NCBI RefSeq assembly: GCF_046105845.1
Contig: NZ_CP151004.1
Strand: one strand, 5' to 3'
From: Escherichia coli
Lineage (GTDB): Bacteria; Pseudomonadota; Gammaproteobacteria; Enterobacterales; Enterobacteriaceae
Length of the DNA: 64,000 nucleotides
Shown here: positions 2,457 to 64,000 of the stretch, one piece after another
Numbering within the stretch: position 1 is the stretch's first letter
Layout: every line of letters starts with the position of its first letter
Position numbers and translations under genes: made by a program
The notes under the pieces: generated by a model
Seen by the model: only the letters and a program-made list of their open reading frames with translations
The model's database searches: none
Told to the model about the DNA's origin: nothing

Positions 2457-4184
2457 TTAGCAGATTGTTTTTTCTTCAATGAACTTGTTAACCAGCGTCA
2501 TTAACTCGTCCGTTGTCGGTTGAGCAAGAGCCTGCTCTGCTAACACCTTCGCATCTTCGAAGTTCGTGTTACGGATAATCTTCTTAATGCGCGGGATAGA
2601 AATGGCGCTCATAGAGAATTCGTCCAGACCCATCCCCAGCAACAGAAGTGTAGCACGTTCATCGCCAGCAAGCTCACCACACATGCCAGTCCATTTGCCT
2701 TCAGCATGAGAAGCATCAATAACTTGCTTGATCAAGTTCAGCACGGACGGTGACATTGGCTGGTAAAGGTGTGAAATCATATCATTACCACGGTCAACTG
2801 CCAGAGTGTACTGCGTTAAATCATTGGTGCCGATACTAAAGAAATCAACTTCTTTGGCTAAATGACGTGCAATTGTTGCGGCAGCCGGTGTTTCCACCAT
2901 TACGCCGATTTCAATTGACTCGTCAAACGCTTTACCTTCGTCGCGCAGTTCCTGTTTGTAGATTTCGATCTCTTTGCGCAGTGCACGTACTTCTTCAACA
3001 GAGATGATCATCGGGAACATAATGCGCAATTTACCGAAAGCCGAGGCACGCAGGATAGCGCGGAGCTGATCGCGCAGGATCTCTTTACGATCCATCGCGA
3101 TACGGATAGCGCGCCAGCCGAGGAACGGGTTCTCTTCTTTCGGGAAGTTCATGTATGGCAGCTCTTTGTCGCCGCCGATGTCCATGGTACGAACGATAAC
3201 CGCCTGCGAGCCACACGCTTCAGCCACTGCTTTGTAAGCAGCAAACTGTTCTTCTTCAGTGGGCAGCGCGTCGCGGTCCATGAACAGGAACTCAGTACGA
3301 TACAGACCAACGCCTTCAGCGCCGTTACGCTCTGCACCTTCAACGTCACGAACCGTACCAATGTTAGCGCACACTTCTACCTGGTGACCGTCCAGCGTAA
3401 TAGCTGGCAGATCTTTCAGTTTAGCAAGCTCTGCTTTTTCAGAAGCCACTTGCTCCTGAACAGCGCGCATTTTATCAATAACTTCGTTGGTTGGATTGAC
3501 GTAAACCTGATTATTTACGGCATCCAGAATCAGATAGTCGTCATTTTTCACCTGAGAGGTGACGCTACCGGTACCCACGATAGCAGGCAGTTCCAGAGAA
3601 CGCGCCATGATAGAGGTGTGGGAAGTACGGCCACCCGCGTCGGTGATGAAACCCAGCACCTTCTTCAGGTTCAGCTGTGCGGTTTCGGACGGCGTCAGGT
3701 CAGCGGCAACCAGAATGACTTCATCCTGAATGGCGCTCAGGTCGATAATCTTCAGGCCCAGGATGTTGCGCAGCAGGCGCTTACCGATATCACGTACGTC
3801 AGCCGCACGTTCTTTCAGGTATTCATCATCCAGCTCTTCCAGGGCAGAAGCCTGACCTTCGATAACTTCATGAGCAGCTGCGTCAGCTGTCATGTGCTTA
3901 TCTTTAATCAGGGCTATGATTTCCTGCTCCAGCTCCTCATCTTCGAGCAGCATAATATGCCCTTCAAAGATGGCTTCTTTTTCTTCACCGAACGTTTCAC
4001 CAGCTTTCGTTTTGATCGTTTCCAGCTGGGCTGATGCCTTGGCACGACCGCTCAGAAAACGTTCAACTTCCTGATCAACCTGGTCGGCAGAAATTTTTTT
4101 CCGGTCAATGACAATTTCGTCTTCTTTCAGAAGCAGAGCTTTACCGAAAGCGATACCCGGGGATGCTAAAATGCCTGAAATCAT
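2457..4184 (-). CDS. ptsI: PTS enzyme I (phosphoenolpyruvate-protein phosphotransferase)
   Basis: 575-aa [22 protein letters not shown]... recognised as PtsI. Confidence 0.95.
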
Positions 4185-12783: not shown

Positions 12784-12859
12784 TGGTGGGTCGTGCAGGA
12801 TTCGAACCTGCGACCAATTGATTAAAAGTCAACTGCTCTACCAACTGAGCTAACGACCC
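12784..12859 (-). tRNA. lysV: tRNA-Lys (anticodon UUU)
   Basis: Reverse complement matches canonical E. coli tRNA-Lys including CCA end. Confidence 0.95.
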
Positions 12860-12863
12860 GAAG

Positions 12864-12939
12864 TGGTGGGTGATGACGGGATCGAACCGCCGACCCCCTC
12901 CTTGTAAGGGAGGTGCTCTCCCAGCTGAGCTAATCACCC
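12864..12939 (-). tRNA. valY: tRNA-Val (anticodon UAC)
   Basis: Reverse complement matches canonical E. coli tRNA-Val(UAC) including CCA end. Confidence 0.95.
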
Positions 12940-12985
12940 ACTTCGGTACTTCACATTTTTACAAGAAATTTAGCTGGTGAGAAAG

Positions 12986-13061
12986 TGGTGGGTGATGACG
13001 GGATCGAACCGCCGACCCCCTCCTTGTAAGGGAGGTGCTCTCCCAGCTGAGCTAATCACCC
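12986..13061 (-). tRNA. valX: tRNA-Val (anticodon UAC)
   Basis: Second identical tRNA-Val copy, 46-bp spacer. Confidence 0.95.
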
Positions 13062-13105
13062 ACTTCTCAATTTCTTGCTACACGGCGGAGACTACATAAA
13101 GTAGT

Positions 13106-13181
13106 TGGTGGGTGATGACGGGATCGAACCGCCGACCCCCTCCTTGTAAGGGAGGTGCTCTCCCAGCTGAGCTAATCACCC
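13106..13181 (-). tRNA. valU: tRNA-Val (anticodon UAC)
   Basis: Third identical tRNA-Val copy; first gene of the operon. Confidence 0.95.
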
Positions 13182-15879: not shown

Positions 15880-15955
<76 letters not shown>

Positions 15956-15994
15956 AATTTTGCACCCAGCAAATTTGGTACGTAAACGCATCGT

Positions 15995-16070
<76 letters not shown>

Positions 16071-54034: not shown

Positions 54035-55030
54035 ATGGCTTCATTAAAGGATGTCGCACGCCTGGCGGGAGTGTCGATGATGACAGTCTCCCGGGTGATG
54101 CATAATGCAGAATCTGTGCGTCCTGCAACGCGTGACCGCGTATTGCAGGCAATCCAGACCCTGAATTATGTTCCTGATCTTTCCGCCCGTAAGATGCGCG
54201 CTCAAGGACGTAAGCCGTCGACTCTCGCCGTGCTGGCGCAGGACACTGCTACCACTCCTTTCTCTGTTGATATTCTGCTTGCCATTGAGCAAACCGCCAG
54301 CGAGTTCGGCTGGAATAGTTTTTTAATCAATATTTTTTCTGAAGATGACGCTGCCCGCGCGGCACGTCAGCTGCTTGCCCACCGTCCGGATGGCATTATC
54401 TATACTACAATGGGGCTGCGACATATCACGCTGCCTGAGTCTCTGTATGGTGAAAATATTGTATTGGCGAACTGTGTGGCGGATGACCCAGCGTTACCCA
54501 GTTATATCCCTGATGATTACACTGCACAATATGAATCAACACAGCATTTGCTCGCGGCGGGCTATCGTCAACCGTTATGCTTCTGGCTACCGGAAAGTGC
54601 GTTGGCAACAGGGTATCGTCGGCAGGGATTTGAGCAGGCCTGGCGTGATGCTGGACGAGATCTGGCTGAGGTGAAACAATTTCACATGGCAACAGGTGAT
54701 GATCACTACACCGATCTCGCAAGTTTACTCAATGACCACTTCAAATCTGGCAAACCAGATTTTGATGTTCTGATATGTGGTAACGATCGCGCAGCCTTTG
54801 TCGCTTATCAGGTTCTCCTGGCGAAGGGGGTACGTATCCCGCAGGATGTCGCCGTAATGGGCTTTGATAATCTGGTTGGCGTCGGGCATCTGTTTTTACC
54901 GCCGCTGACCACAATTCAGCTTCCACATGACATTATCGGGCGGGAAGCTGCATTGCATATTATTGAAGGTCGTGAAGGGGGAAGAGTGACGCGGATCCCT
55001 TGCCCGCTGTTGATCCGTTGTTCCACCTGA
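54035..55030 (+). CDS. cscR: LacI-family sucrose operon repressor (start taken at MASLKDVARLAGVS)
   Basis: N-terminal LacI-type HTH (LKDVARLAGVSMMTVSRVMHN) plus periplasmic-binding-like sugar domain; convergent with cscA. Confidence 0.85.
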   Translation: MASLKDVARLAGVSMMTVSRVMHNAESVRPATRDRVLQAIQTLNYVPDLSARKMRAQGRKPSTLAVLAQDTATTPFSVDILLAIEQTASEFGWNSFLINIFSEDDAARAARQLLAHRPDGIIYTTMGLRHITLPESLYGENIVLANCVADDPALPSYIPDDYTAQYESTQHLLAAGYRQPLCFWLPESALATGYRRQGFEQAWRDAGRDLAEVKQFHMATGDDHYTDLASLLNDHFKSGKPDFDVLICGNDRAAFVAYQVLLAKGVRIPQDVAVMGFDNLVGVGHLFLPPLTTIQLPHDIIGREAALHIIEGREGGRVTRIPCPLLIRCST

Positions 55031-55037
55031 TATTATG

Positions 55038-56471
55038 TTAACCCAGTTGCCAGAGTGCTCCATGTTGCAGCACAGCCACTCCGTGGGAGGCATAGAGCGA
55101 CAGTTCCCGTTCTTCTGGCTGCGGATAGATTCGGCTACTCATCACCGTTTCCCCGTCGTTAATAAATACTTCCACGGATGATGTATCGATAAATATCCTT
55201 AGGGCGAGCGTGTCACCCTGCGGGAGGGGAATACTACGGTAGCCGTCTAAATTCTCGTGTGGGTAATATCGCCACAAAACAAGTCGCTCAGATTGGTTAT
55301 CAATATACAGCCGCATTCCAGTGCCGAGCTGTAATCCGTAATGTTCGGCATCACTGTTCTTCAGCGCCCACTGCAACTGAATCTCAACTGCTTGCGCGTT
55401 TTCCTGCAAAACATATTTATTGCTGATTGTGCGGGGAGAGATAGATTGATGCTGCTGGCGTAACGACTCAGCTTCGTGTACCGGGCGTTGTAGGAGTTTG
55501 CCATTGCTCTCTGATAGCTCGCGCGCCAGCGTCATGCAGCCTGCCCAGCCTTCACGTTTTGAGGGCATTGGCGATTCCCACATATCCATCCAGCCGATAA
55601 CAATACGCCGACCATCCTTCGCTACAAAGCTTTGTGGTGCATAAAAGTCATGCCCGTTATCAAGTTCAGTAAAATGCCCGGATTGTGCAAAAAGTCGTCC
55701 AGGCGACCAAATTCCGGGTATTACGCCACTTTGAAAGCGATTTCGATAACTGTATCCCTCGGCATTCATTCCCTGCGGGGAAAACATCAGATAATGCTGA
55801 TCGCCAAGGCTGAAAAAGTCCGGACATTCCCACATATAGCTTTCACCCGCATCAGCGTGGGCCAGTACGCGATCGAAAGTCCATTCACGCAATGAACTGC
55901 CGCGATAAAGCAGGATCTGCCCCGTGTTGCCTGGGTCTTTCGCCCCGACTACCATCCACCATGTGTCGGCTTCACGCCACACTTTAGGATCGCGGAAGTG
56001 CATGATGCCTTCTGGTGGAGTGAGGATCACACCCTGTTTCTCGAAATGAATACCATCCCGACTGGTAGCCAGACATTGTACTTCGCGAATTGCATCGTCA
56101 TTACCTGCACCATCGAGCCAGACGTGTCCGGTGTAGATAAGTGAGAGGACACCATTGTCATCGACAGCACTACCTGAAAAACACCCGTCTTTGTCATTCT
56201 CGTCTCCTGGCGCTAGCGCAATAGGCTCATGCTGCCAGTGGATCATATCGTCGCTGGTGGCATGTCCCCAGTGCATTGGCCCCCAGTGTTCGCTCATCGG
56301 GTGATGTTGATAAAACGCGTGATAACGATCGTTAAACCAGATCAGGCCGTTTGGATCGTTCATCCACCCGGCAGGAGGCGCGAGGTGAAAATGGGGATAG
56401 AAAGTGTTACCTCGGCGCTCGTGAAGTTTTGCTAGTGCGTTTTGCGCCGCATGTAATCGAGATTGCGTCAT
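55038..56471 (-). CDS. cscA: Sucrose-6-phosphate hydrolase / invertase (glycoside hydrolase family 32)
   Basis: GH32 motifs WMNDPNGL, FRDP and WECPD in the translation. Confidence 0.9.
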   Translation of the reverse strand: MTQSRLHAAQNALAKLHERRGNTFYPHFHLAPPAGWMNDPNGLIWFNDRYHAFYQHHPMSEHWGPMHWGHATSDDMIHWQHEPIALAPGDENDKDGCFSGSAVDDNGVLSLIYTGHVWLDGAGNDDAIREVQCLATSRDGIHFEKQGVILTPPEGIMHFRDPKVWREADTWWMVVGAKDPGNTGQILLYRGSSLREWTFDRVLAHADAGESYMWECPDFFSLGDQHYLMFSPQGMNAEGYSYRNRFQSGVIPGIWSPGRLFAQSGHFTELDNGHDFYAPQSFVAKDGRRIVIGWMDMWESPMPSKREGWAGCMTLARELSESNGKLLQRPVHEAESLRQQHQSISPRTISNKYVLQENAQAVEIQLQWALKNSDAEHYGLQLGTGMRLYIDNQSERLVLWRYYPHENLDGYRSIPLPQGDTLALRIFIDTSSVEVFINDGETVMSSRIYPQPEERELSLYASHGVAVLQHGALWQLG

Positions 56472-56504
56472 TTTTATCATCCTGGTTAAGCAAACTTGGT
56501 GAAT

Positions 56505-56517
56505 TGTTAACGTTAAC
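56505..56517. promoter_or_regulatory. Candidate CscR operator O1 (palindrome TGTTAACGTTAAC) upstream of cscA
   Basis: Self-complementary GTTAACGTTAAC core with central CG, typical of LacI-family operators. Confidence 0.5.
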
Positions 56518-56568
56518 CTTTATAAAAATAAAGTCCCTTGCTTTCATAAATGCGATGAATATCACAAA

Positions 56569-56581
56569 TGTTAACGTTAAC
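56569..56581. promoter_or_regulatory. Candidate CscR operator O2 (second exact copy of TGTTAACGTTAAC) upstream of cscK
   Basis: Identical 13-mer 64 bp from O1 within the divergent cscA/cscK control region. Confidence 0.5.
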
Positions 56582-56686
56582 TATGACGTTTTGTGATCGA
56601 ATATGCATGTTTTAGTAAATCCATGACGATTTTGCGAAAAAGAGGTTTATCACTATGCGTAAGTCAGATGAATTTAAGGGAAAAAA

Positions 56687-57610
56687 ATGTCAGCCAAAGT
56701 ATGGGTTTTAGGGGATGCGGTCGTAGATCTCTTGCCAGAATCAGACGGGCGGCTACTGCCTTGTCCTGGCGGTGCGCCAGCTAACGTTGCGGTGGGAATC
56801 GCCAGATTAGGCGGAATAAGTGGGTTTATAGGTCGGGTGGGGGATGATCCTTTTGGTGCGTTAATGCAAAGAACGCTGCTAACTGAGGGTGTCGATATCA
56901 CGTATCTGAAGCAAGATGAATGGCACCGGACATCCACGGTGCTTGTCGATCTGAACGATCAAGGAGAACGTTCATTTACGTTTATGGTCCGCCCCAGTGC
57001 CGATCTTTTTTTAGAGACGACAGACTTGCCCTGCTGGCGACATGGCGAATGGTTACATCTCTGTTCAATTGCGTTGTCTGCCGAGCCTTCGCGTACCAGC
57101 GCATTTACAGCGATGACGGCGATCCGGCATGCCGGAGGTTTTGTCAGCTTCGATCCCAATATTCGTGAAGATCTATGGCAAGACGAGCATTTGCTCCGCT
57201 TGTGTTTGCGGCAGGCGCTACAACTGGCGGATGTCGTCAAGCTCTCGGAAGAAGAATGGCGACTTATCAGTGGAAAAACACAGAACGATCGGGATATATG
57301 CGCCCTGGCAAAAGAGTATGAGATCGCCATGCTGTTGGTGACTAAAGGTGCAGAAGGGGTGGTGGTCTGTTATCGAGGACAAGTTCACCATTTTGCTGGA
57401 ATGTCTGTGAATTGTGTCGATAGCACGGGGGCGGGAGATGCGTTCGTTGCCGGGTTACTCACAGGTCTGTCCTCTACGGGATTATCTACAGATGAAAGAG
57501 AAATGCGACAAATTATCGATCTCGCTCAACGTTGCGGAGCGCTTGCAGTAACAGCGAAAGGGGCAATGACAGCGCTGCCATGTCGACAAGAACTGGAAAG
57601 TGAGAAGTAA
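56687..57610 (+). CDS. cscK: Fructokinase (PfkB/ribokinase family)
   Basis: 307-aa ORF with PfkB signatures (GGAPANVAVGIARLGG and DSTGAGDAFVAGLL). Confidence 0.9.
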   Translation: MSAKVWVLGDAVVDLLPESDGRLLPCPGGAPANVAVGIARLGGISGFIGRVGDDPFGALMQRTLLTEGVDITYLKQDEWHRTSTVLVDLNDQGERSFTFMVRPSADLFLETTDLPCWRHGEWLHLCSIALSAEPSRTSAFTAMTAIRHAGGFVSFDPNIREDLWQDEHLLRLCLRQALQLADVVKLSEEEWRLISGKTQNDRDICALAKEYEIAMLLVTKGAEGVVVCYRGQVHHFAGMSVNCVDSTGAGDAFVAGLLTGLSSTGLSTDEREMRQIIDLAQRCGALAVTAKGAMTALPCRQELESEK

Positions 57611-57671
57611 ACGGCGAGGCCGCTCTTATCTCTAAATAGGACATGAATTTTTTAACGACAGGCAGGTAATT

Positions 57672-58919
57672 ATGGCACTGAATATTCCATTCAGAAATGC
57701 GTACTATCGTTTTGCATCCAGTTACTCATTTCTCTTTTTTATTTCCTGGTCGCTGTGGTGGTCGTTATACGCTATTTGGCTGAAAGGACATCTAGGATTA
57801 ACAGGGACTGAATTAGGTACACTTTATTCGGTCAACCAGTTTACCAGCATTCTATTTATGATGTTCTACGGCATCGTTCAGGATAAACTCGGTCTGAAGA
57901 AACCGCTCATCTGGTGTATGAGTTTCATTCTGGTCTTGACCGGACCGTTTATGATTTACGTTTATGAACCGTTACTGCAAAGCAATTTTTCTGTAGGTCT
58001 AATTCTGGGGGCGCTCTTTTTTGGCCTGGGGTATCTGGCGGGATGCGGTTTGCTTGACAGCTTCACTGAAAAAATGGCGCGAAATTTTCATTTCGAATAT
58101 GGAACAGCGCGCGCCTGGGGATCTTTTGGCTATGCTATTGGCGCGTTCTTTGCCGGTATATTTTTTAGTATCAGTCCCCATATCAACTTCTGGTTGGTCT
58201 CGCTATTTGGCGCTGTATTTATGATGATCAACATGCGTTTTAAAGATAAGGATCACCAGTGCATAGCGGCGGATGCGGGAGGGGTAAAAAAAGAGGATTT
58301 TATCGCAGTTTTCAAGGATCGAAACTTCTGGGTTTTTGTCATATTTATTGTGGGGACGTGGTCTTTCTATAACATTTTTGATCAACAACTCTTTCCTGTC
58401 TTTTATGCAGGTTTATTCGAATCACACGATGTAGGAACGCGCCTGTATGGTTATCTCAACTCATTCCAGGTGGTACTCGAAGCGCTGTGCATGGCGATTA
58501 TTCCTTTCTTTGTGAATCGGGTAGGGCCAAAAAATGCATTACTTATCGGTGTTGTGATTATGGCGTTGCGTATCCTTTCCTGCGCGCTGTTCGTTAACCC
58601 CTGGATTATTTCATTAGTGAAGCTGTTACATGCCATTGAGGTTCCACTTTGTGTCATATCCGTCTTCAAATACAGCGTGGCAAACTTTGATAAGCGCCTG
58701 TCGTCGACGATCTTTCTGATTGGTTTTCAAATTGCCAGTTCGCTTGGGATTGTGCTGCTTTCAACGCCGACTGGGATACTCTTTGACCACGCAGGCTACC
58801 AGACAGTTTTCTTCGCAATTTCGGGTATTGTCTGCCTGATGTTGCTATTTGGCATTTTCTTCTTGAGTAAAAAACGCGAGCAAATAGTTATGGAAACGCC
58901 TGTACCTTCAGCAATATAG
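57672..58919 (+). CDS. cscB: Sucrose:H+ symporter (LacY-like oligosaccharide:H+ symporter, MFS)
   Basis: 415-aa 12-TM MFS ORF downstream of cscK. Confidence 0.85.
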   Translation: MALNIPFRNAYYRFASSYSFLFFISWSLWWSLYAIWLKGHLGLTGTELGTLYSVNQFTSILFMMFYGIVQDKLGLKKPLIWCMSFILVLTGPFMIYVYEPLLQSNFSVGLILGALFFGLGYLAGCGLLDSFTEKMARNFHFEYGTARAWGSFGYAIGAFFAGIFFSISPHINFWLVSLFGAVFMMINMRFKDKDHQCIAADAGGVKKEDFIAVFKDRNFWVFVIFIVGTWSFYNIFDQQLFPVFYAGLFESHDVGTRLYGYLNSFQVVLEALCMAIIPFFVNRVGPKNALLIGVVIMALRILSCALFVNPWIISLVKLLHAIEVPLCVISVFKYSVANFDKRLSSTIFLIGFQIASSLGIVLLSTPTGILFDHAGYQTVFFAISGIVCLMLLFGIFFLSKKREQIVMETPVPSAI

Positions 58920-59360
58920 ACGTAAACTTTTTCCGGTTGTTGTCGATATCTCCATATCCCTCAACCGGAAAATAGTAATACAAAAATGCTTAGCCCAACT
59001 AATAATCACCTAATCCAAACGCCTCATTCATGTTCTGGTACAGTCGCTCAAATGTACTCCGGATACGCGGTTCGCTGATTTCCAGGACATTGTCGTCATT
59101 CAGCGACCTGTCCCGAGTATCACGGGCCTGCGAATTCATCAAGGAATGCATTGCAGAGTGAAGTATCGAGTCACGCCATATTTCGCTATCAGGATTCTGT
59201 ATGATGGTTACATCGCCCGGCCCAGGGCTGTTTAGTCATCAGCGCTTTCTGACAGTGCTGAGATTTCAACCTGTTGCAGTAAAAATGAGTAGATATAGGG
59301 CAAGTGTGCTGCCAAACCCATCTTTTACGGGGTGAAGGTAGATATTGTTAGAAGGGTATC

Positions 59361-59375
59361 TGGTGTCCCCTGCAG
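59361..59375 (-). other. Prophage attachment-site core (attR): 15-nt copy of the 3' end of tRNA-Arg argW
   Basis: Minus strand reads CTGCAGGGGACACCA, identical to the 3' terminus of argW as I recall it; directly flanks torI as at the K-12 KplE1 attR. Confidence 0.6.
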
Positions 59376-59448
59376 ACATCTACTTGACGCGGCAGGGGAT
59401 TGATTGGAATGGTGTTTTTTGGATGTGAGAAATATTTTACCCGCTATT

Positions 59449-59649
59449 TTACCCATTGGCGCGGCTTAAGAGCTTATTTTTGAATTCACAATGGTCACGA
59501 TATAACCATCTTGCTCGCCCGTGGATAACTTTAGCTTTTGGCAGGTCGCCGGACTTAATCCGGTCATAGATGAAGGTTTTACCGAAGCCAGTATCGGCCA
59601 TGATGAATTTCAAATCAACCAGTGAATCAGGTTGTAGTTCGTGTTGCAT
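59449..59649 (-). CDS. torI: Excisionase / recombination directionality factor TorI (start taken at MQHELQPDSL)
   Basis: 66-aa translation MQHELQPDSLVDLKFIMADTGFGKTFIYDRIKSGDLPKAKVIHGRARWLYRDHCEFKNKLLSRANG recognised as TorI; winged-helix Xis-like. Confidence 0.8.
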   Translation of the reverse strand: MQHELQPDSLVDLKFIMADTGFGKTFIYDRIKSGDLPKAKVIHGRARWLYRDHCEFKNKLLSRANG

Positions 59650-59668
59650 GAGTGCTATCTCCAAATAG

Positions 59669-59684
59669 GGAATCGAACCTGCAA
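59669..59684 (-). other. 16-nt sequence identical to the argW T-arm segment immediately preceding the att core, separated from the core by torI
   Basis: Minus strand TTGCAGGTTCGATTCC; with the 59361-59375 core it reconstitutes the last 30 nt of argW. Confidence 0.45.
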
Positions 59685-59706
59685 ATCAGGCAATAAAAAA
59701 CCGCCA

Positions 59707-59874
59707 TCAGGCGGCTTGATGTTCTTTCAGTTCTTCAATTCGAATATTGGTTACGTCTGCATGTGCTATCTGCGCCCATATCATCCAGTGGTCATAGCAG
59801 TCGTTGATGTTCTCTGCTTCGATAACTCTGTTGAATGGTTCTCCATTCCATTCACCTGTGACTCGGAAGTGCAT
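59707..59874 (-). CDS. Small prophage ORF (55 aa), hypothetical
   Basis: ATG-initiated ORF MHFRVTGEWNGEPFNRVIEAENINDCYDHWMIWAQIAHADVTNIRIEELKEHQAA followed on the minus strand by a GC hairpin and T-run. Confidence 0.35.
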   Translation of the reverse strand: MHFRVTGEWNGEPFNRVIEAENINDCYDHWMIWAQIAHADVTNIRIEELKEHQAA

Positions 59875-59962
59875 TTATCATCTCCATAAAACAAAACCCT
59901 CCGTAGCGAGTTCAGATAAAAGAAATCCCCGCGAATGCGAGGATTGTTATGTAATATTTGGT

Positions 59963-60244
59963 TTAATCATCTATATGTTTTGTACAGAGAGGGCAAGTAT
60001 CGTTTCCACCGTACTCGTGATAATAATTTTGCACGGTAGCAGTCATTTCTCGCACATTGCAGAATGGGGATTTGTCTTCATTAGACTTATAAACCTTCAT
60101 GGAATATTTGTATGCCGACTCTATATCTATACCTTCATCTACATAAACACCTTCGTGATGTCTGCATGGAGACAAGACACCGGATCTGCACAACATTGAT
60201 AACGCCCAATCTTTTTGCTCAGACTCTAACTCATTGATACTCAT
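59963..60244 (-). CDS. Cys/His-rich hypothetical prophage protein (93 aa)
   Basis: ORF containing CRSGVLSPCRHH and CPLCTKH motifs; ea-region position. Confidence 0.45.
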   Translation of the reverse strand: MSINELESEQKDWALSMLCRSGVLSPCRHHEGVYVDEGIDIESAYKYSMKVYKSNEDKSPFCNVREMTATVQNYYHEYGGNDTCPLCTKHIDD

Positions 60245-60446
60245 TTATAAACTCCTTGCAATGTATGTCGTTTCAGCTAAACGGTATCAGCAATGTTTAT
60301 GTAAAGAAACAGTAAGATAATACTCAACCCGATGTTTGAGTACGGTCATCATCTGACACTACAGACTCTGGCATCGCTGTGAAGACGACGCGAAATTCAG
60401 CATTTTCACAAGCGTTATTTTTTACAAACCCGTATTCCTGCTCATA

Positions 60447-61070
60447 TCACTCTCCTTTGATGCGAATACCAGCAGTGCGCTCGGCTTCACTTTGTTCCCA
60501 AAACCACTTGTGAAGCTCCATAAGCTTTTCGTCAATCGGTGCATATTTGCGATTAAAGTAGGCCTGAGCATCTTTCTCAGATTCGTCCGGCAATTCGCCT
60601 GGGCCAAACAGTGTGTTATAAATCCATGCCAGTCCGCTTTTAGCGTCGCCAGTTGCCTGCCATTCGATAATCGCAGCCTGCATGACCAGAATGTTTTTCC
60701 CGATTAACAGGTCCAGTTCTTTGAACCGGTTGCGGATGTATGCATTCTCGCTTTGTAATTTTGCGTTGCGCTTCTCTGCGGCTTCCAGCTCAACACGCAG
60801 TTTCCCTACCGCTAGCGCAATTTCCTCGTTCTCCTGGTCGCGGCGTTTGATGTATTGCTGGTTTCTTTCCCGTTCATCCAGTAGTGCCAGCACGGTTTCT
60901 GGTCCGGCCAGAAATTTGAAGGCGTTGAGCGCATCAATATCCACACCGTAATCTTTAAGTTCCTGTTCACTTAACAAATCATCATCAGCTGGCAACATTA
61001 ACAGGCGTTCCATTGCTGGAATTGCACGTTCCGCCACCTCACGCAGTGCCTGGTAATTAATTTCGCTCAC
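60447..61070 (-). CDS. Lambdoid prophage ea-region protein, possibly Ea22-like (coiled-coil)
   Basis: 207-aa [27 protein letters not shown]... with central heptad-rich segment; start overlaps the upstream ORF stop (ATGA). Confidence 0.5.
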   Translation of the reverse strand: MSEINYQALREVAERAIPAMERLLMLPADDDLLSEQELKDYGVDIDALNAFKFLAGPETVLALLDERERNQQYIKRRDQENEEIALAVGKLRVELEAAEKRNAKLQSENAYIRNRFKELDLLIGKNILVMQAAIIEWQATGDAKSGLAWIYNTLFGPGELPDESEKDAQAYFNRKYAPIDEKLMELHKWFWEQSEAERTAGIRIKGE

Positions 61071-61516
61071 TGGTTGCCTCCTTTGCGAAGCTGGGCAGCA
61101 AAGTCACGGATAGTGTCATCAAGGTCTGGGCACAACAGATGGTCAGCAAACATCTCTACCCCCTGCGCCCGTACTTCAGCCAGGAAAGCATCGGTGGTTG
61201 GGGTTTCAGTAACATCATCTTCCCATTCGCCAAACTCCTCACGACAAAAGTCATTAAATTCCTTCTCAGATTGCTTAAGCGAGGTATTTTCTGCAGCCAT
61301 CTTCGCGCATTTAGCCTCAAGGTTATCAATCGTGATTCCAGCAGAACGACACTCCCGCAACGCCGTTTCCAGTTTTGATTCAAGCTCACCGAACTTACGC
61401 ACCAGATATTCAGCGTTTGTTTCGTTAACCTTTAAATCTCGTGGAAAGCATTTACCTTTCAGAAAACCATCCATCTCAATTAGTGACATTAGTTTCATTT
61501 CTTCCCACTCCGCCAC
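61067..61516 (-). CDS. Lambdoid prophage ea-region protein (coiled-coil, acidic), hypothetical
   Basis: 149-aa ORF translationally coupled to the downstream 207-aa ORF. Confidence 0.45.
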
Positions 61517-61655
61517 ATAGCATTCAGATATTTGTTGTCATTAACAGAACCGAAACTATTTCTCTTAAGTAATTCCTCTCTCGATGGCATTGGCTTTACG
61601 CGTTGGCGAATAATCATTTCTGCCGGAAGAATGCCGGGATTGTATGCAAGTCCTC

Positions 61656-61946
61656 TCATGATTTACTCTCCACGAACTGGTCAACAGCCATGCTAAGTGA
61701 CACACCTAAAGTCTCGATATGTTGCTGAATATCCTGTAGCGTCTGCGCCTGAGATAACAGGATTTCACGGTTGCATAACTCTTTAGCCAGATGCTCAAAC
61801 TTGCTGTAATAACCGATACGACTTAGTGTTTCTTTGCCTGCATTCTCGCCTTCTTTGATAATTCCTCTTTCGCTAAGAATCAGATCGTGTTTGGTTCCGG
61901 TAATAACGTATTTTCCGAGGTCGATGTTTAGCTTCATTGTTTTCAT
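61656..61946 (-). CDS. Hypothetical prophage protein (96 aa; start moved to [13 protein letters not shown], which has a GAGGA RBS)
   Basis: The track ORF N-terminus overlaps the upstream gene and looks out-of-frame; internal ATG has a strong RBS. Confidence 0.4.
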
Positions 61947-61956
61947 TGTTAATTCC

Positions 61957-62253
61957 TCAGTCATTACTGATAGCGCCATAGCGTGAGCGGTAATTACGCA
62001 GGCGCGGGTCGATATATTCAGGGAAGTGGGTATATGTGGCTTTGCGGAATGGTCGGATTGATGTCTGGTAAATTCGCTCGCGTTCTTCTTTCTCTGCAAG
62101 CCATATACAATGGCGAAATTCCTTTTCCTCTTTCGTTTCCTGCGGTAGCGACATTATCCGGTCGTAGTTTTTCCTGAATTTATCCAGCACCTCCGATACG
62201 GAATTGCCGGAACAGCGGCGCGGGTCATCCGCACCATACAGAGGCGCTGGCAT
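61957..62253 (-). CDS. Hypothetical prophage protein (98 aa) just downstream of the Erf/SSB-like pair; Abc-like anti-RecBCD role is speculative
   Basis: Charged 98-aa ORF MPAPLYGADDPRRCSGNSVSEVLDKFRKNYDRIM...; occupies the position where P22-type operons carry abc genes. Confidence 0.35.
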   Translation of the reverse strand: MPAPLYGADDPRRCSGNSVSEVLDKFRKNYDRIMSLPQETKEEKEFRHCIWLAEKEERERIYQTSIRPFRKATYTHFPEYIDPRLRNYRSRYGAISND

Positions 62254-62276
62254 AATGGAATCCTTATGTTGCTAAT

Positions 62277-62660
62277 TTAGAAGGGAATTGAATCGTCGTA
62301 TTCAGGATGATTTTGATGATTGCTACTTTGTTGCTGTTGGCTGTTTCCTGAAGTTGCAAATCCAATCTTTGCATTCAGTAATTCAAGAGTGATTGATTGA
62401 CCATTTTGCCCCTGATAAACATCAACCCTGATGTTTTCTCCGGTAATTTCTACAATGCCACCTTCAACAAGAACACTACGGTAGTAATCCGCTTGCGCTC
62501 CCGGCTTGGCAAATACAACGGCGCTGTAGTTTGTCCATTCTTTCTTTTTTGTCTGGCGATCGTAATACTGAACGCCAGCACGGATGTTGAATCCGATATT
62601 TTCCCCGGCCTGAAACTCTCTTGCGGGCTTGTTTAGTCTTACAGTAATCGAATGTGCCAT
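62277..62660 (-). CDS. SSB-like single-strand DNA-binding protein with SSB-type acidic C-terminal tip (start taken at MAHSITVRLNK)
   Basis: 127-aa ORF ending ...QQQQSSNHQNHPEYDDSIPF (compare SSB C-terminus DDDIPF); ATG overlaps the erf stop (TAATG). Confidence 0.55.
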   Translation of the reverse strand: MAHSITVRLNKPAREFQAGENIGFNIRAGVQYYDRQTKKKEWTNYSAVVFAKPGAQADYYRSVLVEGGIVEITGENIRVDVYQGQNGQSITLELLNAKIGFATSGNSQQQQSSNHQNHPEYDDSIPF

Positions 62661-63265
62661 TAAGCAGCCGCTCCTTCTAATTCGTCTCGTCTGATGTTGT
62701 AAACGTCCTGCGCTTTGTGCTGCTCCGGTGTGCCTTCGAGCATCTTCCACGCTTTGGCGAACGCCTGTTTAAGCTCTTCTACGGTGTTTTTCTGCAATGC
62801 TGCGTCAGTGAATGCTTTTAGAACCTGTTCAGATGTAGGTGATGGTTTTGATTGCTTTGCTGCTGCGTTCTGCTGATGTTTATGCTCGTCGGTATCTGCA
62901 TCTTTCGCATCATCAATGCCGAACAAACCATTGAGGCAATACTTGCGTGCATAAGAGCTTGTAGCTCCAGTAACTTGTGCAGAATCCATTCCTTTCTTGC
63001 TTTCTTCCTCTCGTGCAAGGGCGGTTGCTGTATGACTGTTTTCGCCATCAGTAATAGTTGCTGTTGCTTTCACGTAATACCGATCACCAATCAACACAAC
63101 TTCATCGCTGATTGATAAAAACAGGCCATTCAGTAACGGCTTAACGCCTTCAAGAATGTCTTCGCAGCTTCTGTATTTATATTTACCGAATGAGTTGTAC
63201 TGATTCTTTGGCGCGTTCAGATTCTCCTGAATGGCTGCCAGTCTTGCGTAAAATTCTTTGCTCAT
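62660..63265 (-). CDS. erf: Erf-family single-strand annealing recombinase (start taken at MSKEFYARLAAIQ)
   Basis: Translation MSKEFYARLAAIQENLNAPKNQYNSFGKYKYRSCEDILEGVKPLL... recognised as phage P22 Erf-like. Confidence 0.8.
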   Translation of the reverse strand: MSKEFYARLAAIQENLNAPKNQYNSFGKYKYRSCEDILEGVKPLLNGLFLSISDEVVLIGDRYYVKATATITDGENSHTATALAREEESKKGMDSAQVTGATSSYARKYCLNGLFGIDDAKDADTDEHKHQQNAAAKQSKPSPTSEQVLKAFTDAALQKNTVEELKQAFAKAWKMLEGTPEQHKAQDVYNIRRDELEGAAA

Positions 63266-63275
63266 ATGTTTGTTC

Positions 63276-63446
63276 TCAGAATGGACACGGCCCAAGGAAA
63301 TAACGCTGATTTAATACTTCGACTCGGGACAAATTAAGGCATACCCGCATTCCTTCGCGGTCACCATTATGGCGATACCAGAGAGCTTTCTGCGTGTACA
63401 TGCGTCTCTGTAACTTGCTCTCCTTCACTGTGGTTGCAAGTGACAT
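63276..63446 (-). CDS. Small prophage ORF (56 aa) immediately upstream of erf (Arf-position), hypothetical
   Basis: ATG with AGGAG RBS 6 nt upstream; MSLATTVKESKLQRRMYTQKALWYRHNGDREGMRVCLNLSRVEVLNQRYFLGPCPF; stop 10 nt before the erf start. Confidence 0.4.
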   Translation of the reverse strand: MSLATTVKESKLQRRMYTQKALWYRHNGDREGMRVCLNLSRVEVLNQRYFLGPCPF

Positions 63447-63525
63447 GAATATCTCCTTCGTTACCGATTAAATCTTTCATCTGACGAATGAATTCTTCGT
63501 CTGACCAGTTATCTGTAAAACTCAT
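63367..63525 (-). CDS. Small prophage ORF (52 aa, acidic; kil-position), overlaps the 56-aa ORF in another frame
   Basis: MSFTDNWSDEEFIRQMKDLIGNEGDIHVTCNHSEGEQVTETHVHAESSLVSP; weak RBS spacing; at most one of the two overlapping frames is likely expressed. Confidence 0.25.
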   Translation of the reverse strand: MSFTDNWSDEEFIRQMKDLIGNEGDIHVTCNHSEGEQVTETHVHAESSLVSP

Positions 63526-63658
63526 TTCCTGCGATACCACGGAAGGTTGATAGCTGATTTCATCGCTTTATTTGCTTCAAGCCACATTTTGGAATCACCA
63601 ATAAATCTGGCTATTACTGCTTTGTTTTGTGCCGCACGAAGCATCTGGTGATTAATGG

Positions 63659-63793
63659 CTATTTCATTTCGCATAACGCCTCCAGTTGTTTCTTTGCTGC
63701 TCTGATTAATTGTTTAACTCGGCGTGATAATTCAGATTCGTGCGGGTAGAAAGCGGACATGACGCCGCTACCCGCGAGCTGAAAGTGCATCAT
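63659..63793 (-). CDS. Small cIII-like protein (43 aa; candidate FtsH-inhibitor type)
   Basis: ATG ATG with AAGGAG RBS; MMHFQLAGSGVMSAFYPHESELSRRVKQLIRAAKKQLEALCEMK, with an amphipathic helix resembling the lambda CIII core. Confidence 0.4.
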   Translation of the reverse strand: MMHFQLAGSGVMSAFYPHESELSRRVKQLIRAAKKQLEALCEMK

Positions 63794-63857
63794 GGGTAAC
63801 TCCTTATATTTGATTGCATAACGAAAACGCCTCAAGTGAAGCGTTATTGGTATGCAT

Positions 63858-63883
63858 ATAAAAAAGCCCTCACACTGGAGGGC
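63858..63883 (-). terminator. Rho-independent terminator in the prophage leftward operon (tL1-like position upstream of the cIII-like gene)
   Basis: Hairpin gccctc-acactg-gagggc followed on the minus strand by a T-run. Confidence 0.5.
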
Positions 63884-64000
63884 AAAGAAGATTTCCAATA
63901 ATCAGAACAAGTCGTCTCCTGTTTAGTTACGAGCGACATTGCTCCGTGTATTCACTCGTTGTAATGAATACACAGTGCAGTGTTTATTCTGTTGTTTATG

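Follow-up and report, generated by a model that had tools for sequence, protein, structure and literature searches.

A divergent SSB-like protein with a bacterial-type C-terminal tip, encoded between erf and abc2 in a lambdoid prophage of Escherichia coli

The DNA considered here (termed the window) is a stretch of 64,000 nucleotides from the Escherichia coli contig NZ_CP151004.1 (RefSeq assembly GCF_046105845.1), within which a lambdoid early-left operon is read from the minus strand. In the direction of reading, its genes are kil (63674..63522; PHROG_2055 at E = 1.2e-35), which is a marker of the early-left (pL) operon and lies upstream of the recombination module; a small gene of 56 codons (63446..63276; PHROG_1723 at 9.4e-36), which occupies the arf position of P22 directly upstream of erf, as small genes do in HK022 and HK97; erf itself (63265..62660); a gene for a 127-residue protein that resembles single-strand DNA binding proteins (62660..62277, termed here the SSB-like gene, of type 'SSB-1b'); and, directly downstream, abc2 (62253..61957), which encodes an anti-RecBCD protein of 98 residues (PHROG_656 at 7.8e-57; 93% identical to P22 Abc2) and stands third in the recombination module. 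Beyond abc2 come Ea-type genes and then a TorI/Xis-like gene at the prophage end. No Rfam family and no tRNA was found within positions 55000-64000, and the PADLOC defence and anti-defence models gave no match. An earlier note on this DNA, which drew attention to erf and to the gene behind it, had placed both correctly without stating that they lie on the minus strand; it left out abc2.

The two genes singled out in this way share one base: the stop codon of erf (TAA, 62662..62660, minus strand) runs into the start codon of the SSB-like gene (ATG, 62660..62658), and the resulting TAATG (62662..62658) is as the earlier note had described it. Within the 3' end of erf, 10 nt 5' of this ATG, lies a Shine-Dalgarno-like hexamer, AAGGAG (62676..62671). 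The one-base stop/start overlap recurs in HK022, HK97 and P22, in a Vibrio phage and in a Leminorella prophage; moreover, the order erf, ssb-1b, abc2 and the overlap are present together in all 80 of the 80 closest viral loci in IMG/VR. The open reading frame (MAHSITVRLNKPAREFQAGENIGFNIRAGVQYYDRQ...NHQNHPEYDDSIPF*) comprises 127 codons plus a stop (62279..62277). Its start codon is genuine, since MAHSIT or MHSIT is also where homologues from many genera begin; the possibility that the SSB-like ending is an out-of-frame artefact and that translation really starts further downstream, which had been raised together with the original observation, can thus be set aside.

The upstream gene was correctly recognized as a P22-type erf. 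Its product (201 aa, MSKEFYARL...ELEGAAA*) belongs to the Erf family of single-strand annealing proteins (PF04404, which is carried by close homologues at 81-97% identity); it is matched by PHROG_155 at E = 1.9e-57 and is 75% identical to P22 Erf, with identity falling from about 90% over residues 1-135 to about 40% in the C-terminal domain. The annealing domain is N-terminal; a Q/P/S-rich linker connects it to a three-helix bundle of about 55 residues at the C-terminus. A model of this last domain (66 residues) is a confidently predicted bundle with three helices and a pLDDT of 84.6; a sequence search for a solved Erf structure found none. At two loci (L047 and L051) the same C-terminal domain seemed to follow an alternative annealing domain, but these proved to be deletions or rearrangements within defective prophages from which the Erf N-terminal domain is missing.

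The SSB-like protein is best understood by considering first what recognizes it and what does not. A profile for 'single strand DNA binding protein', PHROG_44, aligns its positions 89-228 (of 271) with residues 2-127 of the protein at E = 1.8e-28 and 101 bits. Pfam returns no match even at E ≤ 10 (PF00436 included), and the NCBIfam model TIGR00621 scores 16.4 bits, below its cut-off of 53.95; this agrees with the earlier remark that the N-terminal region is unlike canonical SSB. Nor is this a peculiarity of one sequence: among 22 relatives PF00436 detects none at E ≤ 0.001 and three at E ≤ 0.1. The best sequence match within the PDB is an SSB (7d8j, E = 0.04). A profile search of 1.84 billion representatives indicates that the family is small and self-contained, with 198 clusters (at 50% identity) at E ≤ 0.001.

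An AlphaFold2 model of the protein, built on 46 homologues, has a mean pLDDT of 85.7, which exceeds 90 over residues 1-100 and falls below 50 over residues 108-120. Its confidently modelled part (the OB-fold domain, residues 1-103; 62660..62352, minus strand) is a five-stranded barrel with SSB topology, in which a helix (residues 55-63) lies between strands 3 and 4; the modelled strands comprise residues 3-8, 14-18, 21-34 and 39-51 before the helix and 69-74, 76-84, 87-95 and 98-103 after it. The top structural matches are bacterial SSB and PriB, and the structural alignments to these folds have sequence identities of 18% or less. In E. coli SSB, residues W40, W54, F60 and W88 stack against single-stranded DNA and His55 is a tetramerisation residue. 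Profile alignments (hhalign) to that protein place Y32 opposite W40, either W42 or Y45 opposite W54, F50 opposite F60, and Y82 opposite W88, and one such alignment puts Thr43 at the position of His55; since these alignments have probabilities of 4-15%, and since the register of one loop shifts between two runs, the presence of conserved aromatic residues opposite the DNA-stacking residues is suggestive only. The prediction as a whole supports viewing the protein as a very divergent relative of bacterial SSB, in which an OB core is joined by a short disordered linker to an acidic IPF tip. Profile search and structure prediction, two of the checks that the earlier note had put forward, both speak for its reading.

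The linker (residues 104-118; 62351..62307) is Q/N/S-rich and is modelled with low pLDDT. The tip that follows it (residues 119-127; 62306..62280) reads PEYDDSIPF in frame, as had been noticed at the outset. The tip of E. coli SSB is MDFDDDIPF, with which PEYDDSIPF shares the last three residues, the two preceding aspartates, an aromatic residue at position -7 and an acidic residue at -8. The SSB-like open reading frame is the sole one ending in IPF among the 365 stop-to-stop segments of at least 60 residues in the window, and chance alone would yield 0.001 termini of the form [DE][DE]x[ILVP]PF per window. When 46 relatives are aligned, the OB domain proves highly conserved, whereas the linker, which is rich in Q, N, P and G, may comprise anything between about 15 and about 100 residues; despite this variability, nearly all enteric homologues retain a tip of the form D-D-x-I-P-F or D-D-x-P-P-F. 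Across the family, 73 of 120 full-length representatives end with an acidic [IVLP]PF tip or have one within one residue of the end; the others have Q-rich ends or are truncated or extended, and the tip-less members include marine relatives. With about 40% of the 50%-identity representatives lacking an IPF tip, the tip is not universally required. The same comparison explains the unusual shortness of the protein, to which attention had been drawn: it is due mostly to a linker of about 15 residues, as against about 55 in E. coli SSB, and not to a truncated fold.

Of 5426 complete E. coli genomes, 578 (about 11%) carry this gene, always labelled 'hypothetical protein' (its label in RefSeq and GenBank, and in most phage records as well), and the reading frame is intact in 571 complete genomes. 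When compared with diverged copies, the gene has a dN/dS of 0.03-0.06, with synonymous sites that are far diverged or saturated; a value near 0.05 indicates strong purifying selection. The protein is, in addition, 100% identical to gp40 of phage HK022 (HK022_40) and 94% identical to gp40 of HK97. In the prototype HK97 record (NC_002167) a one-base insertion, an extra C, turns the ending ...DDSIPF* into ...DDSNPILI*, and thereby hides the tip.

What takes the place of this gene in other modules is informative regarding its role. In other Erf prophages (L086 and L099-L106) the position behind erf, abutting or overlapping its stop codon, is filled by a canonical SSB (MASRGVNKV...DFDDDIPF), and one of these prophages carries an Erf identical to that of P22. 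In P22 itself the occupant is Abc1, a protein of 94 residues with which the 127-residue protein gives no BLASTP alignment at E ≤ 100. The slot after erf is thus a cassette site, which may hold SSB-1b, a canonical SSB or P22 Abc1, and, of the three occupants known, two are SSBs that have the tip in common. More distant relatives of the SSB-like protein also occur behind annealing proteins other than Erf: in Vibrio phage 1.198.A the gene, whose product ends in ...NNEPPF, comes after RecT and an exonuclease, and in a Leminorella prophage it comes after an AAA_24 (Sak4-type) gene, in both cases with the overlap; neither of these two modules includes abc2. From the Erf, RecT and Sak4-type contexts it appears that the family supplies the SSB of recombination modules whose annealing proteins belong to at least three unrelated families.

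These observations lead to the interpretation favored here, to which we assign a probability of roughly 0.7: the 127-residue protein is the module's own SSB, which would coat single-stranded DNA and whose tip would engage Erf, host SSB partners, or both. From this perspective, the phage early-left operon would supply the protein and Erf in a fixed ratio--by virtue of the one-base overlap and the protein's own Shine-Dalgarno site--with Abc2 to follow. After induction or infection, Abc2 would re-programme RecBCD, so that phage DNA ends would be resected rather than destroyed (the conversion of RecBCD by Abc2 is well established from work on P22); next, the phage SSB would cover the exposed single strand; the host-like C-terminal tip would then act as a docking peptide, recruiting Erf and possibly host SSB-binding proteins to the SSB-covered DNA; and Erf would finally anneal complementary strands. 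Whereas the gene structure, the coding status and the conservation of both the tip and the position behind annealing proteins can be read off directly, and an SSB-type OB fold is what the model returns, we infer that the protein binds single-stranded DNA, and its oligomeric state and the binding partners of its tip are likewise a matter of expectation. To our knowledge, P22 Erf works without any phage SSB, which counts against this interpretation; so do the sub-threshold scores of the curated SSB models, the low probability of the alignments behind the aromatic equivalences and the absence of an IPF tip from part of the family. The tail-dependent SSB of HK620 (PMC5928155), described below, offers a precedent in its favor, and a related report (PNAS 2025, PMC12054835) describes phage SSBs as frequent within annealing-protein operons and the C-terminal tails of SSBs as the likely factor deciding in which hosts a given annealing protein functions.

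If the tip were to dock onto Erf, a counterpart might be sought in the C-terminal bundle of Erf. The C-terminal domain of Redbeta is a known binder of the SSB tail, and a kinship between it and the Erf domain was considered; it is unsupported, inasmuch as Foldseek found no match in the PDB at E < 1 and did not retrieve Redbeta, a weak test for so small a bundle. Co-variation was also considered. Among 80 Erf loci, all 71 that carry SSB-1b have the window's type of Erf C-terminal domain, but at 6 loci this type is followed by a canonical SSB, and the P22 type is followed either by Abc1 or by a canonical SSB; because both types pair with canonical SSB, strict co-variation of the Erf C-terminal domain with the downstream gene is rejected. 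Neither line of evidence, therefore, lends direct support to a contact between the tip and Erf.

A lesser possibility, which overlaps with that of a module SSB, is that the protein is a general replication SSB of the phage, serving the replisome or else rolling-circle or recombination-dependent replication. An SSB-type fold with a tip is consistent with such a role, as is the fact that the tip of bacterial SSB recruits replication proteins (PMC5928155). Yet the gene belongs to the early-left recombination module and not to a replication module of the O/P type, every context examined ties it to annealing proteins, and many lambdoid phages replicate without an SSB of their own, as 177 of 246 do according to a recent survey (PMC12315714).

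It is rather unlikely that the protein functions instead as a mimic or decoy of host SSB, either by capturing or redirecting ExoI, RecQ, RecJ, RecO, PriA or the χ subunit of pol III through its tip, or by shielding phage single-stranded DNA from host nucleases or defence sensors. The close similarity of its tip to that of E. coli SSB speaks for this notion, as does the neighboring abc2, which is itself a host-takeover function; and pairing with three unrelated families of annealing proteins would fit a common target, namely the host. However, if the protein were purely a decoy, it would have no need of a conserved OB core held under strong purifying selection, PADLOC provides no match to a defence or anti-defence system, and in HK620 the tail of the corresponding protein acts on the phage annealing protein (PMC5928155). 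The gene, moreover, is invariably the one directly after an annealing-protein gene, its start codon overlapping that gene's stop codon, which points to stoichiometric co-function. Slightly less probable again is a version of this notion in which the protein is chiefly a host-SSB mimic: its OB core would sit on phage single-stranded DNA while its tip hijacks or titrates the host SSB interactome, or else blinds defences that sense SSB-coated DNA; the pairing with Erf, RecT and Sak4 would then be secondary, and the tip-less marine relatives would follow a different strategy.

The GenBank record of HK022 annotates gp40 as 'hypothetical protein; likely analog of P22 Abc1', and the gene does have the same position between erf and abc2, and the same one-base overlap with erf, as P22 abc1. 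That it is a functional analogue of Abc1--that is, an accessory of Abc2 in the conversion of RecBCD rather than an SSB working with Erf--is nevertheless improbable: no similarity to Abc1 is detectable at E ≤ 100, both fold and tail are SSB-like, canonical SSBs fill the slot in sister modules, relatives are found in modules without abc2 (those of the Vibrio phage and the Leminorella prophage), and the 'abc1' of HK620 has likewise been re-assigned as an SSB (PMC5928155). Finally, the idea that the reading frame is spurious or decaying and ends like an SSB by coincidence, for which one might cite its 'hypothetical protein' label in RefSeq and GenBank and its lack of a Pfam domain, is the only alternative excluded outright, by the conservation data: a dN/dS of 0.03-0.06, intact copies in 571 complete E. 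coli genomes and 198 clusters of relatives, alongside a tip expected 0.001 times per window.

Returning to the module's own SSB, both its sequence and its predicted function were already known, as HK022 gp40 and as SSB-1b. A survey of 325 lambdoid phages (Genome Res 2025, PMC12315714) reports that the predicted structure of HK97 gp40 is similar to bacterial SSBs and names this type SSB-1b; there the assignment is based on the AlphaFold 3 fold alone, and such proteins are said to 'have not been studied experimentally'. The survey's main text makes no mention of the conserved IPF tip. A literature search for experimental work on gp40 of HK022 or of HK97 found none. The description of this pair as an under-characterised recombination module is thus somewhat too strong: the protein equals HK022 gp40, its HK97 twin has been named, and the principle of a cognate SSB that depends on its tail has been demonstrated for HK620 (PMC5928155).

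The yield of this analysis, then, lies less in a new question than in the closing of a gap in annotation. The evidence supports renaming the gene, now a 'hypothetical protein' or an 'Abc1 analog', as a phage SSB. What is added here is the conservation of the IPF tip across the family, the equivalence of the slot with that of canonical SSB genes, the data on selection, the association with modules of the Erf, RecT and Sak4 kinds, and the one-base insertion by which the HK97 record conceals the tip. More generally, the occurrence of a canonical SSB, a divergent SSB or Abc1 in one and the same slot constitutes a natural swap set for exploring which properties of an SSB and its tail an annealing protein depends on; and, for recombineering, Erf and its cognate SSB make up a compact pair of candidates, in line with the reports on the Sak4-SSB pair of HK620 and on matched annealing proteins and SSBs.

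Among known systems, one that has been characterized by experiment is that of HK620. Its HkaK ('SSB-2'), encoded in a slot once labelled 'abc1', is a genuine SSB, which binds single-stranded DNA and stimulates Sak4 in vivo as well as in vitro, for which its last six residues, NDYPPF, are required (Hutinet et al. 2018, PMC5928155). The likeness to the window lies in the slot, which follows and overlaps the annealing-protein gene and is upstream of abc2, and in an acidic PPF tail, an ending that some SSB-1b relatives have as well. The differences are that HkaK comprises 195 residues, that its partner is Sak4 (a RecA-like, ATP-dependent protein) and not Erf, and that DNA binding is proven there and predicted here; an hhalign comparison of the two proteins, with a probability of 0.2%, reveals no detectable relationship. 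Canonical SSBs (E. coli SSB, PF00436, and the lambdoid 'SSB-1' of ES18 and Sf6) share with the window's protein an SSB/PriB-type OB fold, a disordered linker and an acidic IPF tip, but they differ from it in sequence (identity is at most 18%, and the Pfam and TIGRFAM models fail) and in the linker, which at about 15 residues is much shorter in the window. The Erf-Abc1-Abc2 module of P22 has the same gene order and the same one-base overlap after erf, with its middle gene replaced in the window; and in HK022 and HK97 the order is erf, gp40, abc2, just as it is here.

The published prototype of the SSB-1b type (divergent SSB-like proteins such as the 127-aa one that the window encodes between erf and abc2), HK97 gp40, lacks the acidic C-terminal SSB tip because the deposited gene 40 contains a surplus C: close to the gene's 3' end the HK97 record (NC_002167; locus L003, 1787-1810) has one C more than the window has at 62277-62300. 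As deposited, gp40 ends in ...YDDSNPILI*; without the surplus C it would end in ...YDDSIPF*, as do the HK022 and window proteins. The surplus C is either a genuine frameshift or an old sequencing error. Across the family, the acidic tip ending in IPF is missing from about 40% of the representatives (clustered at 50% identity), examples including P0128, P0136, P0144, P0153, P0154, P0195 and P0210. Many of these representatives, most of those being metagenomic, have Q/G-rich C-termini instead (e.g., ...NFQQPR or ...GFPQHQG), and a few family members have 10-15 further residues after the IPF (...IPFAPIGLQ...).

In some Erf prophages the slot directly 3' of erf is occupied neither by SSB-1b nor by Abc1, the unrelated P22 protein, but by a canonical E. 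coli-like SSB of 153-157 aa, whose C-terminus is DFDDDIPF or a near variant. The corresponding gene lies at 3119-3589 in L086, at 3110-3571 in L099, L100, L102, L103 and L104, and at 3109-3582 in L106. The L086 module combines a P22-identical Erf with the canonical SSB, an HNH-like gene and Abc2; in L099 and L104 an unannotated 182-aa gene (3580-4128) is inserted ahead of the abc2-like gene.

Three close relatives of the window module, L034, L047 and L051, retain ssb-1b and abc2 intact amid decay. In L034 erf is split (2734-3825), an insertion of about 1.1 kb separating its N-terminal from its C-terminal domain; in L047 (3400-3750) and L051 (3500-3830) there is an erf remnant from which the N-terminal domain has been deleted and which is adjoined by a repressor-like or unrelated gene.

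The ORF that follows abc2 in the window (61656-62099, minus strand) is listed as 147 aa from a TTG start and overlaps abc2; its conserved portion corresponds to a 96-aa product starting from the ATG at 61946. This product matches PHROG_154, 'replication initiation protein' (E=7e-32), a name that looks doubtful for a small early-left gene.

Two tRNA clusters in the window's chromosomal portion, Lys-Val-Val-Val (12784-13181, minus strand) and Ala-Ala (15880-16070, plus strand), bear no relation to the erf/SSB-like finding. The final gene of the phage encodes a TorI/Xis-like excisionase (59449-59664, minus strand); some 0.5 kb away is a gene for a LacY/CscB-type oligosaccharide MFS transporter (57672-58919, plus strand), which scores 595 bits against TIGR00882. 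Neither an integrase gene nor a tRNA occurs at this excisionase-side end within the window, which fits a prophage with an attachment site between int and xis, with the integrase end outside the window; in HK620 and KplE1 the attachment site likewise lies between int and xis.
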